Positions 20,568 to 29,760 of a stretch of 64,000 nt of DNA are shown one piece after another. The stretch is from Pseudomonadota bacterium (GTDB lineage: Bacteria; Pseudomonadota; Alphaproteobacteria; UBA2136; JAPKEQ01): assembly GCA_036141575.1 (NCBI GenBank), contig JAYZXF010000018.1, positions 613 to 64,612 on the forward strand. The letters run 5' to 3'. The position numbers and the translations under genes are program-made. Within the stretch, counting starts at the first letter, position 1; each line of letters begins with the position of its first letter. The notes below the pieces were generated by a model. That model did no database searches. It was not told the origin of the DNA and was given only the letters and a program-made list of their open reading frames with translations.

Positions 20568-21716
20568 TTAGCTGTCTACCAGACTGTTTTTGTACTCATT
20601 CAGAGCACGAAGCAGCCCTCGGGTTTGGTGTTCACACATGGTGCCTTCAAATACGAAGTAATCCAGGAAGTTTTCAGTGATATGGATCACATCTTCAAGC
20701 ATGTGAATTTCAGCTGTTATGTTGCCGTTAGCAGCGACCGTGATGGTATTGATCAAGCCGTTGACATCATAGATGAGCGGGTGCATAGAGTCGTAGTGAT
20801 TCGCATGCAGCTCCACATGTGCCATTTGGCGTTCATTGGAGTAAATGATCAGTGCTGCGTCTGAAACGGGAGTACCAGAATAAACATCCACAAACAGGTT
20901 ATCTTTCTTGGACTTTCCAACTGTCCACTCTGCAATCGCTTGGCTGAGAGAGCATCCAAAAAAGCCATGGGCTTCACTCTCAACAACATAGATGCTTGCA
21001 CCTTCATCCTCAATGGCTTCACTGACGGTATCACAAAGGAAATCAGCAATTTTGACATCAAGGAGTTCGGTGTTTTCAAGGCCGTTAGGCAGCATGCTTC
21101 CTGCAGCTTCTTCGGCTTTTGCACCTGGGTAGGCCATATCAACAAAAGCGCAGATGCTTTTGATGTCGCTGAGAACTTTGTTGCTCACGCCCTCTTTTTT
21201 CCAAGTGAGGGATGCAAACGTTTTGATTTTCTCAATTTCACTGCGAACAGAGAAAGCATCAATCATCTTGCTGACGATTTCGGCTGCATTGGGCAGAACG
21301 TTATCACGAATTGTTGTGAACTCTGTCAGGTGCAAGCGCCCCCACAGGAGGTTGTTGACAAGTGTTAGGCCGCCGTGGCTAAACGTCAACATACGCATGC
21401 CGTTATCAAAGATCACAAAATCCAGTGTGACGGAGTCTTCCTCGTCAAGGTAGAGCTGCAGGCTACTGCCTTCAAGAAGGTCGCCGTGAAAGTTATAACG
21501 AACTTTAGGAGCAAAGTTGAATTGCAGACCTATGAAAGGGTTTTCCTCCAAAGAGGTCAGAAAGCTGCCAAGTACAGGGCCAAAATCTTTGAAATTTTTG
21601 GTTTTGTACAAGGTGTCTACGTATTCTCCTTCAATGTCGCCATTAAAGGTTTCCGCATAGAACTCTACAGAGCTGATGAGAGCATCAACTTGAGTTTTCG
21701 TAAGTTGTTTGTTCAT
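20568..21716 (-). CDS. hypothetical cytoplasmic acidic protein, no family recognised
   Basis: Long ORF with AGGAG 7 nt upstream of the ATG. No TM segment or signal peptide and no recognisable motif. Confidence 0.6.
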   Translation of the reverse strand: MNKQLTKTQVDALISSVEFYAETFNGDIEGEYVDTLYKTKNFKDFGPVLGSFLTSLEENPFIGLQFNFAPKVRYNFHGDLLEGSSLQLYLDEEDSVTLDFVIFDNGMRMLTFSHGGLTLVNNLLWGRLHLTEFTTIRDNVLPNAAEIVSKMIDAFSVRSEIEKIKTFASLTWKKEGVSNKVLSDIKSICAFVDMAYPGAKAEEAAGSMLPNGLENTELLDVKIADFLCDTVSEAIEDEGASIYVVESEAHGFFGCSLSQAIAEWTVGKSKKDNLFVDVYSGTPVSDAALIIYSNERQMAHVELHANHYDSMHPLIYDVNGLINTITVAANGNITAEIHMLEDVIHITENFLDYFVFEGTMCEHQTRGLLRALNEYKNSLVDS

Positions 21717-24412: not shown

Positions 24413-24444
24413 AATGGCTAGCATAGGCGTTTCTTCTTCAAATG

Positions 24445-24476
24445 GCAAAAAAAAGCAGCCCTCCATTTCTGGAGGG
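24445..24476 (-). terminator. rho-independent terminator after the 110-aa basic protein gene
   Basis: Stem gccctcc / ggagggc followed by TGCTTTTTTTTG on the minus strand. Confidence 0.8.
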
Positions 24477-24491
24477 CAACTTTTATCGACT

Positions 24492-24824
24492 TTAGATAAC
24501 CAAAGAGATGACCGTGGCAACAATTGCAGCAACGGCACCTGCGCCGATGGCACCAAGAATGATGTATCTGCGAATCTTGGCACGGGCGCGTCTTTTGACT
24601 TCACCTGCGGCAAGGTCAGCAGCAGCACCAACCAATGGGGCAGCATTTTTGGCCGCTTCTACAGCGCCTCTGGCAACCTTGCCGGCAGCACCTTTTGCTG
24701 CTTCCCTAACTTTAGGGCTAGCAGCAACTTGGCCAGCTTTTTTGGCGCCACCTTTGACAACCTTACCAGCAGCGCCAGCAGCACCACCGATAATTTTTTT
24801 GAGGAATTTTCCAGGTTTAGGCAT
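24492..24824 (-). CDS. small, very basic Ala/Gly/Lys-repeat protein with a C-terminal (tail-anchor-like) TM segment
   Basis: AAGGAGG lies 4 nt upstream of the ATG. GAAGKV... is repeated twice, then RRARAKIRRY, then IILGAIGAGAVAAIVATVISLVI at the extreme C-terminus. Confidence 0.6.
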   Translation of the reverse strand: MPKPGKFLKKIIGGAAGAAGKVVKGGAKKAGQVAASPKVREAAKGAAGKVARGAVEAAKNAAPLVGAAADLAAGEVKRRARAKIRRYIILGAIGAGAVAAIVATVISLVI

Positions 24825-24839
24825 AAGGCCTCCTTGGGG

Positions 24840-25406
24840 TTATTGCAGGAAGGACAACAGACCGCCAAACTCAGAGAGTAAGCCGATGCCGTCGAGAATG
24901 TCTGCGAAGGGATTAGGGATGAAAACCAGCAGTGCCAGCATGACCACCAACATGATGAAATCATCATCTTGCAGGTCATTCAGGAAGTCGCCGAAAACTT
25001 GGCTGCCATGTTGTTCAGCAAACTTGAGTAAGCCGCCGCGAAGCGGGTCAGCATCCAAGCGTGCGCGCAACAGCATTGCAGCTGCGGAAATCGCAGGGCC
25101 AACCAGAGGGGTTTCGTCTTGGAATTTCCGCAGCTTTTTGTACATCTCTGGCAGGGTATTCAACACGTCTTGAGTGTTGGGCACGTCCGGTAGCATGTTT
25201 TTGCAACTGGTTGCAAAACTGCTGATGGTTTCAGTTGGGATGTTATTGGTCAATGTGTCGACCACGTTGATATTGGTCACAGCGCCTGCAGCTTTGCCAG
25301 CAACATCACTTGCTGTATCAGCTGCTTTACCTACAGCATCTGTGGCTGTATCAGCAACTTTACCGGCAGCGTCTTTTGCAAGATCTGTCAGCTTTTTTCC
25401 AAACAT
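24840..25406 (-). CDS. acidic repeat protein with three N-terminal 11-residue repeats and a C-terminal hydrophobic region
   Basis: ATG at 25406 has AAGGA upstream. Repeats are AKDAAGKVADT / ATDAVGKAADT / ASDVAGKAAGA. C-terminus is DDDFIMLVVMLALLVFIPNPF... Confidence 0.6.
   Translation of the reverse strand: MFGKKLTDLAKDAAGKVADTATDAVGKAADTASDVAGKAAGAVTNINVVDTLTNNIPTETISSFATSCKNMLPDVPNTQDVLNTLPEMYKKLRKFQDETPLVGPAISAAAMLLRARLDADPLRGGLLKFAEQHGSQVFGDFLNDLQDDDFIMLVVMLALLVFIPNPFADILDGIGLLSEFGGLLSFLQ
25281..25379. repeat. three tandem 33-nt coding repeats (11-residue protein repeats)
   Basis: Read from the translation of 24840-25406 and from the DNA periodicity. Confidence 0.8.
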
Positions 25407-25440
25407 TTGGAGTCCTTTCGAGAGGAGAAAGAGGGACATT

Positions 25441-25475
25441 GAAGATAATAATCCCCTCCAGATATAGAGGGGATT
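25441..25475 (-). terminator. hairpin after the M16 peptidase gene
   Basis: 9-bp stem aatcccctc / gaggggatt; the trailing T-run is weak. Confidence 0.55.
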
Positions 25476-25498
25476 GTATTCAATTTCAAGGGAAAAGT

Positions 25499-28148: not shown

Positions 28149-28505
28149 TTATCTACTAATTGTTTTTAAAAAGTGTGTCAGGTTGCTTGTGATCATAACG
28201 GCTGTTACAAGAATAAGAACCATCCATGCCTGCTCTTTGTTTTGAAGGGCTGTGATCTTTTCTCCAAGGTATTCACCTGCAAAGTAATAGGTAATGCAAA
28301 GCAATGTTGCAAAGAGTGTAATGAACATGTAGCCCAGAGTTAGCATAGTGTGGAACCACACTGGCATGAACGTTAGGTTCATTGAGATGATTGGTAAGAT
28401 AAATAACCAGATCCATCCCAGTGAGATAAAGAAGTACACAAACAGCAGAACCGCAAAGAGTACGGATGAGAGTAGTAATCTAAGTCTGGCAGCTGCTGAA
28501 AGCAT
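28149..28505 (-). CDS. small polytopic membrane protein (about 4 TM), unknown family
   Basis: Hydrophobic throughout; lies between the COX III gene and thrC with short gaps. Confidence 0.5.
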   Translation of the reverse strand: MLSAAARLRLLLSSVLFAVLLFVYFFISLGWIWLFILPIISMNLTFMPVWFHTMLTLGYMFITLFATLLCITYYFAGEYLGEKITALQNKEQAWMVLILVTAVMITSNLTHFLKTISR

Positions 28506-28548: not shown

Positions 28549-29667
28549 CTATAGAAGGTAAACAAACAGGAAAAGTCCAATCCATACTACATCCACAAAG
28601 TGCCAGTACCAAGCAGACGCTTCAAAGTAAAAGTGGTGCTTGTCTGTAAAGTCACCTTTGTACATACGTAGAAGCACAGCGAGGAGCATCAACGTACCAA
28701 GGAGGACATGGAAACCGTGGAAACCTGTTAGCATGTAGAAGAGTGAGCCATATACACCGCTGCTCATTGTAAATGCAGCATGGCCGTACTCATACATTTG
28801 GCAGAATAGGAAAATAAAGCCAAGGTTCACAGTTAGCAGAAGTGCAAACTTTGCTGTTTCGTACTCTCTGTGTAGAAGCGCGTGGTGTGCCCATGTTACT
28901 GTTACACCTGAAGTGAGTAGCAGGAGCGTGTTAATTGTAGGCAAAGCAATGTGTAGTGTTTCAATGTTTTCTGGAGGCCATACAGGGTTAAAGCTTCTTA
29001 GGAAGAAGAACGCTGCAAAAAAGGCCGCGAAGAACATGATTTCTGAAACAATAAAGAAGATCATACCGTAGCGGTTAGCAAGGTCTAGAACGTAAGGAAC
29101 CTTTTTAAAGCCACGCGCTCGGCTTTCTACAATTAGCTTGAGGAACCATTTCATAGCGGCTGCAAATGTAAGAGCGCCACCAACAATCATAAGAGCTTTA
29201 GCAATGCTGATTGGTGTCTTCATATCTTTAAGCTCTACGCCAGATGTGTAAACCACTGCATAAGCAAGAACAGCAACAATAGCACCAAGGAAGGCAAGCT
29301 TTGTATTCTCTGACTTAAGGGCGTTTTTGATCCAAGTGAGTTTACCAAGACCAAGAACGGCAAATGCTGAGTACTGTAGAGGCAGTGCATAGTCACCAGC
29401 AAAAGCATTACCATTTAGGAATACACCTGTGTAGTAAAGAAGGGCTGCCGCACCTGCTGTCAGCATAAAGAGTCCACCACCAAAGAAAGAGGCAACAGAA
29501 ACGCCGGCAACAACTGTTGCCATAAGCGCCATGAAAAGAAGAGGAGTACCAGGGTGCAAAAGAGCGATAAGGCCAAATACAAGGAACCCTACGCCGAGGC
29601 ATGAGAGTGGTGGCCAAATGTTATTACCTGGGATAAAAAAGTCGTGATCTTGTGCCTGTCCAGCCAT
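28549..29667 (-). CDS. coxC: cytochrome c oxidase subunit III homologue with a large internal insertion
   Basis: C-terminal half has the canonical motifs (TVTWAHHAL, YGSLFYMLTGFHGFHVLLGT, WYWHFVDVVW). ATG at 29667 has AGGA 8 nt upstream. Confidence 0.8.
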   Translation of the reverse strand: MAGQAQDHDFFIPGNNIWPPLSCLGVGFLVFGLIALLHPGTPLLFMALMATVVAGVSVASFFGGGLFMLTAGAAALLYYTGVFLNGNAFAGDYALPLQYSAFAVLGLGKLTWIKNALKSENTKLAFLGAIVAVLAYAVVYTSGVELKDMKTPISIAKALMIVGGALTFAAAMKWFLKLIVESRARGFKKVPYVLDLANRYGMIFFIVSEIMFFAAFFAAFFFLRSFNPVWPPENIETLHIALPTINTLLLLTSGVTVTWAHHALLHREYETAKFALLLTVNLGFIFLFCQMYEYGHAAFTMSSGVYGSLFYMLTGFHGFHVLLGTLMLLAVLLRMYKGDFTDKHHFYFEASAWYWHFVDVVWIGLFLFVYLL

Positions 29668-29760
29668 GAAATACATCCTATTTTTCACATATGTTTTAAA
29701 GAGCCTTTTTAGGCTTATATGCATTTTTACCTGATTCAGGGGTAAAAGTAAAACAGCCTT

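Follow-up and report, generated by a model that had tools for sequence, protein, structure and literature searches.

The 64-kb stretch of contig JAYZXF010000018.1 analyzed here (the window, to which all coordinates refer) carries on its minus strand, between an M16 peptidase gene and uppP, two small adjacent genes, which we call gene 1 and gene 2. Both are real genes under purifying selection that evolve faster than their neighbours, and the pair, which is confined to one small clade of uncultured marine Alphaproteobacteria, is new as a protein family and as a predicted fold; no new biological mechanism is claimed. Gene 1 encodes an acidic protein predicted to be all-helical, and gene 2 encodes a polycationic protein that is predicted to be anchored in the inner membrane by its C-terminus. 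Our tentative reading is that the two may form a highly expressed pair at the membrane surface, which would coat or organise the membrane.

A gene pair of one marine clade

The loci compared come from two metagenome-assembled genomes (L001 and L002), an ENA scaffold (L005), two GTDB species representatives (L006 and L007) and the lineage of the protein P0007 (L008 and L009), and statements on conservation rest on four lineages in all. The order COX3, a 118-amino-acid (aa) open reading frame (ORF), thrC, M16 peptidase gene, gene 1, gene 2, uppP and ABC exporter gene is common to three divergent lineages, and the two genes thus occur together elsewhere than in the window. Gene 1 is 83% identical in L001/L002 and ~50% identical in L006/L007 (83-49% over the orthologues, with synteny kept), and positional orthologues of gene 2, 112-119 aa long, are present in L001/L002, L005/L007 and L006. 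When the ratio of nonsynonymous to synonymous substitution rates (dN/dS) was determined by the Nei-Gojobori method in the frames of Table 1, gene 1 gave 0.11-0.29 and gene 2 ~0.30 (0.11-0.31 overall), with synonymous sites near saturation, compared with 0.01-0.14 for the flanking genes. This result indicates that gene 1 and gene 2 are under purifying selection and evolve faster than their neighbours. Gene 2 is the fastest-evolving gene of the locus, and gene 1 is 54% identical in a comparison in which thrC is 90% identical.

In the P0007 lineage gene 1 is followed by 87 nucleotides (nt) with a terminator and then by uppP, and gene 2 is absent there. The pair is therefore not obligate. According to the identities of the flanking genes, this lineage is the outgroup to the other three, so that gene 2 was either acquired within the inner clade or lost a single time; possibly the gene arose after the outgroup lineage had split off. 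In all lineages the locus occupies the same slot between the M16 peptidase gene and uppP, inheritance is vertical, and the context is not mobile. A phage origin was considered and rejected, as a scan of IMG/VR viral contigs gave no family member. The public runs that carry the locus are seawater or marine metagenomes.

The closest M16 peptidases among metagenome contigs of the Joint Genome Institute (JGI) are 41-47% identical to that of the window, and for this reason the window clade is regarded as phylogenetically isolated and poorly sampled. In 80 JGI loci around M16 peptidases (L012-L091), hmmsearch --max detected no ORF resembling gene 1 or gene 2, and the gene 1 profile had no match among the JGI contigs. 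A basic ORF of ~195 aa, judged on size and charge, often lies downstream of the M16 peptidase gene in the JGI loci.

In a search of 5.8 billion clustered proteins, gene 1 matched four clusters and gene 2 matched one, and the profile of gene 2, run against the same proteins, added its own orthologue and nothing else. When the gene 1 profile was used for an exhaustive hidden Markov model search of 1.84 billion representatives, one further true member, P0007, emerged. The other six matches (E 1.6e-07 to 6.2e-06) were rejected because the three proteins inspected (P0008, P0010 and P0011), which are long tetratricopeptide-repeat (TPR) or tandem-repeat proteins, build their score over many repeats. 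No relative outside the clade was found in the 5.8 billion proteins, the 1.84 billion representatives, Pfam, NCBIfam, PHROGs, PADLOC or PDB sequences. The sub-threshold matches to Ntox10, YtxH, Sec23_trunk, RIFIN and Gly_rich_SFCGS were set aside as composition artefacts, since each came from a single member and from low-complexity sequence; Ntox10 (PF15520) reached 19.8 bits against a cutoff of 26.8 over the repeat region of one of six members, and YtxH reached 15.2 bits (E 0.03) against a cutoff of 37.5 in one of six, the three-repeat member of the window. Sequence searches of the PDB had no significant match (the best for gene 2 was the tail anchor of VAMP2, E 0.45), and Foldseek found no match at E <=0.001 for the gene 1 model in PDB and BFVD (best E 0.6, template modelling scores 0.12-0.36). 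The statement in the original prediction that the pair matches nothing recognised is therefore borne out, family, profile, PDB and fold searches all being empty outside the clade. No papers were found on the assemblies GCA_035092365 and GCA_035092205.

Charge, topology and periodicity of the products

The products are oppositely charged, as had been predicted, although the net charge of gene 2 computed here (+17) is slightly below the ~+18 given before. Ala, Gly and Lys make up 55% of gene 2 (52-56% across lineages). Its cytoplasmic part, 84-91 residues long in the orthologues, is 42-54% identical between lineages and keeps an N/H-A-A-P-L motif, yet its net charge is exactly +17 in all of them. 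The constancy of charge and composition at this level of identity suggests that selection acts on the physical character of gene 2 (net charge and amphipathicity) and not on its sequence.

Gene 2 has the RRARAKIRRY stretch and the hydrophobic C-terminus of 23 residues that were described before, and the 19-residue Kyte-Doolittle maximum of the protein is 2.52. Membrane insertion was assessed by a simple, and therefore crude, sum on the Hessa scale. This sum was negative for C-terminal windows of 19-23 residues in three gene 2 orthologues, in all of which a basic cluster precedes the helix. The helix is rich in Gly and Ala, with a visible GAIGAGAVAA motif. Since no N-terminal hydrophobic segment was found in gene 2 and the C-terminal helix has a length of 19-23 residues, the protein fits a C-tail-anchored inner-membrane protein with a cytoplasmic N-terminus, which is the predicted topology in all the orthologues and agrees with the earlier assignment.

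The original prediction also held that the proteins have the 11-residue periodicity of amphipathic lipid-surface helices. The hydrophobic moment of gene 2 is coherent at 94-100 degrees across the whole cytoplasmic part (84-91 residues) and, in each of three orthologues, is higher than in at least 99.8% of composition-matched shuffles, and that of the gene 1 tail peaks at 98 degrees, a value attained by none of 500 shuffles. Periodicity near 98 degrees, as expected for an 11/3 helix, is thus above shuffles for the gene 1 tail and the cytoplasmic part of gene 2 in three lineages. AlphaFold2 placed helices at residues 4-33, 37-79 and 84-109 of gene 2 with a predicted local distance difference test (pLDDT) score of ~50, and on this model the helix of gene 2 is probably disordered when free.

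Inspection of the alignment of the six gene 1 members shows a variable N-terminal tail, a conserved core and an invariant C-terminal module. The tail of the window protein contains the units AKDAAGKVADT, ATDAVGKAADT and ASDVAGKAAGA. Their coordinates and the 33-nt period of their DNA agree with the earlier description: Tandem Repeats Finder reported a 33-nt period with 2.2 copies and 78% matches, and a second repeat search found three in-register 33-nt copies at 25288-25386, shifted by 7 nt in register and 67-76% identical to the reference copy. There are three copies here, ~2 in the orthologue with 83% identity, and one or none in the others, and judged from this alignment the family as a whole does not conserve the repeats. 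Of the earlier view that the 11-mers are a signature of the late embryogenesis abundant (LEA), apolipoprotein or perilipin type, the periodicity therefore stands, whereas the repeats as a conserved core do not.

The AlphaFold2 model of gene 1, built from an alignment of four sequences, has a predicted template modelling (pTM) score of 0.70. Residues 1-44 form a low-confidence helix (pLDDT <50), and residues 45-188 form nine helices with a pLDDT of ~85-94. Gene 1 is a candidate new fold. The polar residues T58, E59, S67, C68, K69, D80, R114, D120, R123, E131, H133 and S135 of the core are invariant.

The C-terminal module of gene 1 holds -5 to -7 of its net charge. Its hydrophobic run was favourable on the Hessa scale for a window of 14-15 residues alone, and windows of 19 and 21 residues gave ~0 to +4 kcal/mol. 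Because the run has only 14 residues and is flanked by acidic and not by basic residues, a membrane-spanning anchor in gene 1 appears doubtful from the sequence. The claim that both products are C-terminally anchored consequently stands for gene 2 and is not supported for gene 1, in which the run ahead of PNP is marginal to unfavourable as a spanning helix. A half-inserted hairpin and a buried core helix are both live options, the segment lying within the confidently modelled all-helical region 45-188. As a model, gene 1 resembles colicin pore-forming domains and the Bcl-2 family in being all-helical with one extremely hydrophobic helix, a turn and a second helix. This would be a likeness in logic only, since Foldseek finds no similarity in PDB or BFVD and the hydrophobic helix of gene 1 is C-terminal, not central, and has acidic flanks.

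The AAGKVA motif that had been noticed in both proteins is indeed shared as sequence. The unit A-K-x-A-A-G-K-V-A is common to the gene 1 tail and gene 2 (18 of 39 residues without gaps, ~70% DNA identity over the 33-nt unit), and a fourth related 33-nt copy lies inside gene 2 at 24673-24705 (70%). Local alignment of the tail with gene 2 beats shuffles within the window genome (z 6.4) and does so weakly across lineages (z 0.4-4.3), values to be read with the fact that shuffling also destroys the shared periodicity. Composition-corrected BLASTP gave E 16, and the probability in hhalign of the two family profiles was 1%. At profile level the motif is thus no sign of common descent; descent of the gene 1 tail and gene 2 from one ancestor is possible.

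Transcription signals, expression and neighbouring features

The ORF list and the sequence agree with the original prediction of two tightly coupled minus-strand genes, the start of gene 2 lying 15 nt after the stop of gene 1, with AAGGAGG between them (Table 1). Hairpin analysis of this gap found no terminator. Because of the short gap, the consensus ribosome-binding site (RBS) and the lack of an internal terminator, the co-oriented genes form one transcription unit with its own terminator and its own, putative, promoter. Both hairpins that were taken to bound a self-contained unit between core genes, the one 3' of the M16 peptidase gene and the strong terminator, are real by folding energy. 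The operon terminator is kept in L001, L005 and L008. The M16 hairpin has counterparts in the same three (z -4.2 to -7.0) with a different stem sequence, which indicates that structure, not sequence, is kept there.

Table 1. Features of the gene 1-gene 2 locus, with positions in the window
Feature	Position	Strand	Description
Gene 1	24840-25406	-	188 aa, start MFGKK, net charge -9, pI 4.45; acidic, predicted all-helical, orphan family
Gene 2	24492-24824	-	110 aa, net charge +17, pI 11.4; polycationic, Ala/Gly/Lys-rich
RBS of gene 1, AAAGGA	25413-25418	-	6 nt upstream; AAGGA/AAGGAG at the equivalent site in orthologues
RBS of gene 2, AAGGAGG	24829-24835	-	within the 15-nt gap; AGGAG/AAGGAG before the gene 2 orthologues in L001 and L005
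Intrinsic terminator of the operon	24447-24477	-	8-bp stem (6 G-C pairs) at 24458-24477, loop, run of 8 T; -21.7 kcal/mol, z -5.3
Hairpin 3' of M16 peptidase gene	25450-25475	-	-16.9 kcal/mol, z -3.1; likely intrinsic terminator, weak U tract
Putative sigma-70 promoter, CTTGAA-N17-CTATAT	25462-25490	-	-10 element in the loop of the M16 hairpin
Pyrimidine box TCCCTCTTTCT in the 5' leader of gene 1	25426-25436	-	conserved in the alignment of four lineages
Three 33-nt/11-residue repeats	25281-25379	-	gene 1 residues 10-42; zwitterionic amphipathic tail, copy number lineage-variable
C-terminal module of gene 1	24843-24971	-	residues 146-188; Q-[DE]-D-D, exactly 14 hydrophobic residues, PNP, acidic amphipathic helix
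C-terminal transmembrane helix of gene 2	24495-24563	-	residues 88-110 (last 23), preceded by KRRARAKIRRY; predicted tail anchor

The motif CTTGAM-N17-CTAYAT occurs once in the 64-kb window, where 0.03 matches are expected, and both hexamers are kept in all four lineages of the alignment. The site, from which a transcription start near 25455 is predicted, matches the alphaproteobacterial sigma-70 consensus, which in S. meliloti is CTTGAC-N17-CTATAT (PMC2873474). The G+C content at third codon positions (GC3) of gene 1 is 0.52, the highest of ~64 ORFs in the window (mean 0.37, standard deviation 0.04, for the 40 ORFs of at least 250 aa). Gene 1 exceeds its neighbours in GC3 in all four lineages, and gene 2 has no such excess. 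The persistence of the excess in every lineage suggests codon selection in a highly expressed gene and not recent transfer.

Contigs from two marine metatranscriptome runs cover both genes, which are thus represented in RNA (24900-25414 with 5 mismatches in 515 nt, and 24485-24752 with 1 mismatch in 268 nt; the data are strandless and DNA carry-over is possible). The contig of gene 1 is the longest strain-matching one over 20 kb. From the consensus sigma-70 motif, the highest GC3 and this contig, the product of gene 1 is probably abundant and highly expressed.

In the leader, the pyrimidine box TCCCTCTTTCT could pair with the purine-rich RBS; a conserved structure was not predicted. An upstream ATG at 25439 has no RBS and is not conserved, the conserved start being MFG at 25406. 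Two Ala/Pro/Ser-rich ORFs on the plus strand (24414-24881, 155 aa, and 24508-25173, 221 aa) arise as antisense shadows of the GCN-rich reading frames of gene 1 and gene 2, and have no support as genes. An Rfam scan of the window found no RNA family.

The putative promoter overlaps the M16 terminator hairpin, and in four lineages both the hexamers and a hairpin, with differing stems, are kept. The two hairpins that bound the cassette (24459-24476 and 25454-25471) have the core CCCTCCA...TGGAGGG in common, with 78% identity over 18 nt, which may be chance or a terminator design preferred by the genome.

The unit is neighboured by the M16 peptidase gene, the threonine synthase gene (thrC) and COX3 on one side and by the genes of BacA/UppP and an ABC exporter on the other. 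Between COX3 and thrC, a very hydrophobic 118-aa ORF (28149-28505, minus strand) has no Pfam match, and its position and length are kept in L002, L005 and L008. The COX3 gene (28549-29724, minus strand) is long (372-391 aa); the Pfam COX3 domain begins at residue 175 of the 391-aa ORF, which points to an N-terminal extension of ~155 residues that is partly hydrophobic. A second orphan without a Pfam match, a 382-aa ORF at 20568-21716 on the minus strand, has syntenic counterparts in L001 (381 aa) and L008 (377 aa). Its GC3 is the second highest of the window (0.50), and it has the deepest metatranscriptome contig in that part (depth 9.1).

Possible roles of the pair

From the reality of the genes, their distribution, their charges, the topology signals and the amphipathic periodicity, we infer binding to the membrane, an interaction of the products and a role at the membrane surface, and hold this reading tentatively, as possible rather than probable. 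Built of small residues (Ala, Gly, Val, Lys), the ~85-residue cytoplasmic part of gene 2 would be an amphipathic helix that is polycationic and weakly hydrophobic; it would fold on the cytoplasmic side of the inner membrane, along the anionic surface, with the tail anchor keeping it in place. The probably abundant product of gene 1 would dock at that surface via its hydrophobic helix-turn-helix, half-inserted or peripheral and not spanning, and the basic juxtamembrane stretch of gene 2 may be the partner of its acidic C-terminal module; that the acidity of gene 1 is concentrated in this invariant module speaks for the proposal. As a coat or scaffold, the two would give the membrane stability, shielding or shape, and would be neither an enzyme nor a toxin system. 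Gene 1 would be the older, self-sufficient component, and gene 2 an accessory partner, absent from the outgroup.

The 11-mer 3-11 helices of apolipoproteins, alpha-synuclein and perilipin 4 are unfolded in solution and fold on contact with lipid (PMC5889406), and the low AlphaFold2 confidence of the gene 1 tail and of gene 2 would fit such folding on binding. With these proteins and with group 3 LEA proteins the pair has in common the ~11/3 periodicity, a weakly hydrophobic face of small residues, a Lys-bearing polar side and the low model confidence. It differs from them in that there is no homology, that clear 11-residue repeats occur in the window gene 1 alone and vary in number, that the helices are short (40-85 residues), and that gene 2 has a transmembrane helix, which the exchangeable proteins lack.

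Several points weigh against a membrane-surface pair. The core function of gene 1 cannot lie in charge pairing, because the outgroup has gene 1 but no gene 2. Gene 1 may instead be globular and soluble, with the hydrophobic helix as nothing more than its core, given that the model (pTM 0.70) places this helix confidently within residues 45-188. Finally, an anionic bilayer would repel an acidic amphipathic helix unless cations or a basic partner intervened. In a bolder form of the proposal, which we consider quite unlikely, gene 1 would be a new all-helical fold whose ultra-hydrophobic 14-residue helix-PNP-helix module switches between a buried, soluble state and a half-inserted one, and gene 2 would be its membrane receptor or organiser, the two forming a previously undescribed membrane-coating or remodelling pair.

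The N-terminal part of the ElaB, YqjD and YgaM proteins binds and inactivates ribosomes, and dimerisation takes place via the transmembrane helix (bioRxiv 10.1101/2024.08.16.608256). Gene 2 falls into the topology class of these DUF883 proteins, having like them ~100 aa, no signal peptide, a cytoplasmic N-terminal effector part, a basic juxtamembrane stretch and a single C-terminal helix of Gly and small residues. It could thus be a tether that binds a non-lipid polyanion (ribosomes, RNA, DNA or polyphosphate) at the membrane, with the acidic product encoded directly upstream competing or regulating; a charge conserved without conservation of sequence would suit polyanion binding. We regard this as unlikely, although it deserves consideration. 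Sensitive profile searches, proposed with the original prediction, showed no homology to ElaB/YqjD or to phasins: for gene 2 and two orthologues no DUF883 match appeared in Pfam hmmscan even at E up to 10, and none in NCBIfam. The coherent amphipathic periodicity is better explained by a helix lying on a surface than by a polyelectrolyte tail, and gene 1 occurs without gene 2 in the outgroup. This likeness, a predicted one, is accompanied by the differences that gene 2 has no sequence relationship to these proteins, is far more basic, is Ala/Gly/Lys-rich and amphipathic over its whole length, and has an acidic partner.

It is likewise unlikely, in our estimation, that the two genes are unrelated neighbours, with gene 1 encoding a soluble, abundant helical bundle that binds a ligand or metal (C68, H133, E131, D120 and R123) around a hydrophobic core helix, and gene 2 being a young, fast-evolving add-on that uses the strong promoter of gene 1. 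The confident modelling of that helix within residues 45-188, a hydrophobic run too short to span the membrane and the many invariant polar residues of gene 1 are consistent with this explanation, but the invariant residues are drawn from six sequences with at least 49% identity. Similarly, gene 1 stands alone in the outgroup, and gene 2 evolves fastest in the locus and does not share the GC3 excess; nevertheless, gene 2 is under purifying selection with its net charge exactly kept across saturated synonymous divergence, and its strong RBS directly after gene 1 is kept in three lineages.

That the proteins are LEA-like or desiccation-type protectants, in which the hydrophilic 11-mers would shield membranes and proteins during osmotic or cold stress, is very unlikely. 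The repeats occur in 3, ~2, 1 or 0 copies, the conserved part of gene 1 is modelled as a folded helical domain and not as a repeat protein, and desiccation is not an obvious pressure on an open-seawater organism. The explanation draws on the 11-residue periodicity and amphipathicity of the gene 1 tail and on the weak YtxH and Ntox10 matches from the repeat region; however, the Pfam scans listed no LEA family, YtxH stayed below threshold, and the weak matches came from one of six members.

Phasins and histone-like granule proteins (PhaP, PhaF, PhaM) are also small, abundant, amphipathic and helical, some with Ala/Lys-rich basic tails. In contrast to gene 2, phasins have no transmembrane anchors; no phasin family was matched at E up to 10 by either protein or by the orthologues, and no storage-polymer genes lie near the locus.

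Very little credence is given to a toxin-antidote pair, in which gene 2 would be a membrane-active basic toxin and gene 1 its acidic antidote. The layout resembles type II toxin-antitoxin modules, with a small acidic product encoded upstream of a small basic one, tight coupling and fast evolution, and the lone gene 1 of one lineage could be an orphan antidote. Unlike such modules, the locus is fixed in its chromosomal position and vertically inherited through saturated synonymous divergence, has no mobile context and is absent from viral contigs. Among toxin and antitoxin domains MT0933_antitox (E 0.63) was the sole match, PADLOC was empty and PHROGs gave none above threshold; no DNA-binding domain for autoregulation is present, and gene 1 has codon bias and a strong, putatively constitutive-type promoter. 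The notion that one or both ORFs are chance frames in a GC-rich, repeat-containing spacer, for which it can be said that low-complexity Ala/Gly-rich DNA opens long ORFs on the opposite strand too, is practically negligible in view of the dN/dS of 0.11-0.31, the conserved starts, RBSs, terminators, lengths and charge, and the RNA contigs on both genes.

The likenesses that remain, of topology (the tail anchor) and of physical chemistry (3-11 amphipathic helices), are analogies only. The practical weight of the pair is limited by its occurrence in one small uncultured marine alphaproteobacterial clade. The candidate new fold of gene 1, confidently predicted from four sequences, makes it attractive for structure determination, and gene 2, with +17 kept at 42-54% identity, would be a clear example of a protein selected for its net charge and amphipathicity over its sequence. 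If the membrane-surface reading is true, gene 2 would be a bacterial addition to the small set of known tail-anchored proteins, and the pair would be a compact system of two proteins covering a bacterial membrane on its cytoplasmic side, combining a tethered amphipathic polycation in the style of synuclein and perilipin with an acidic helical partner.

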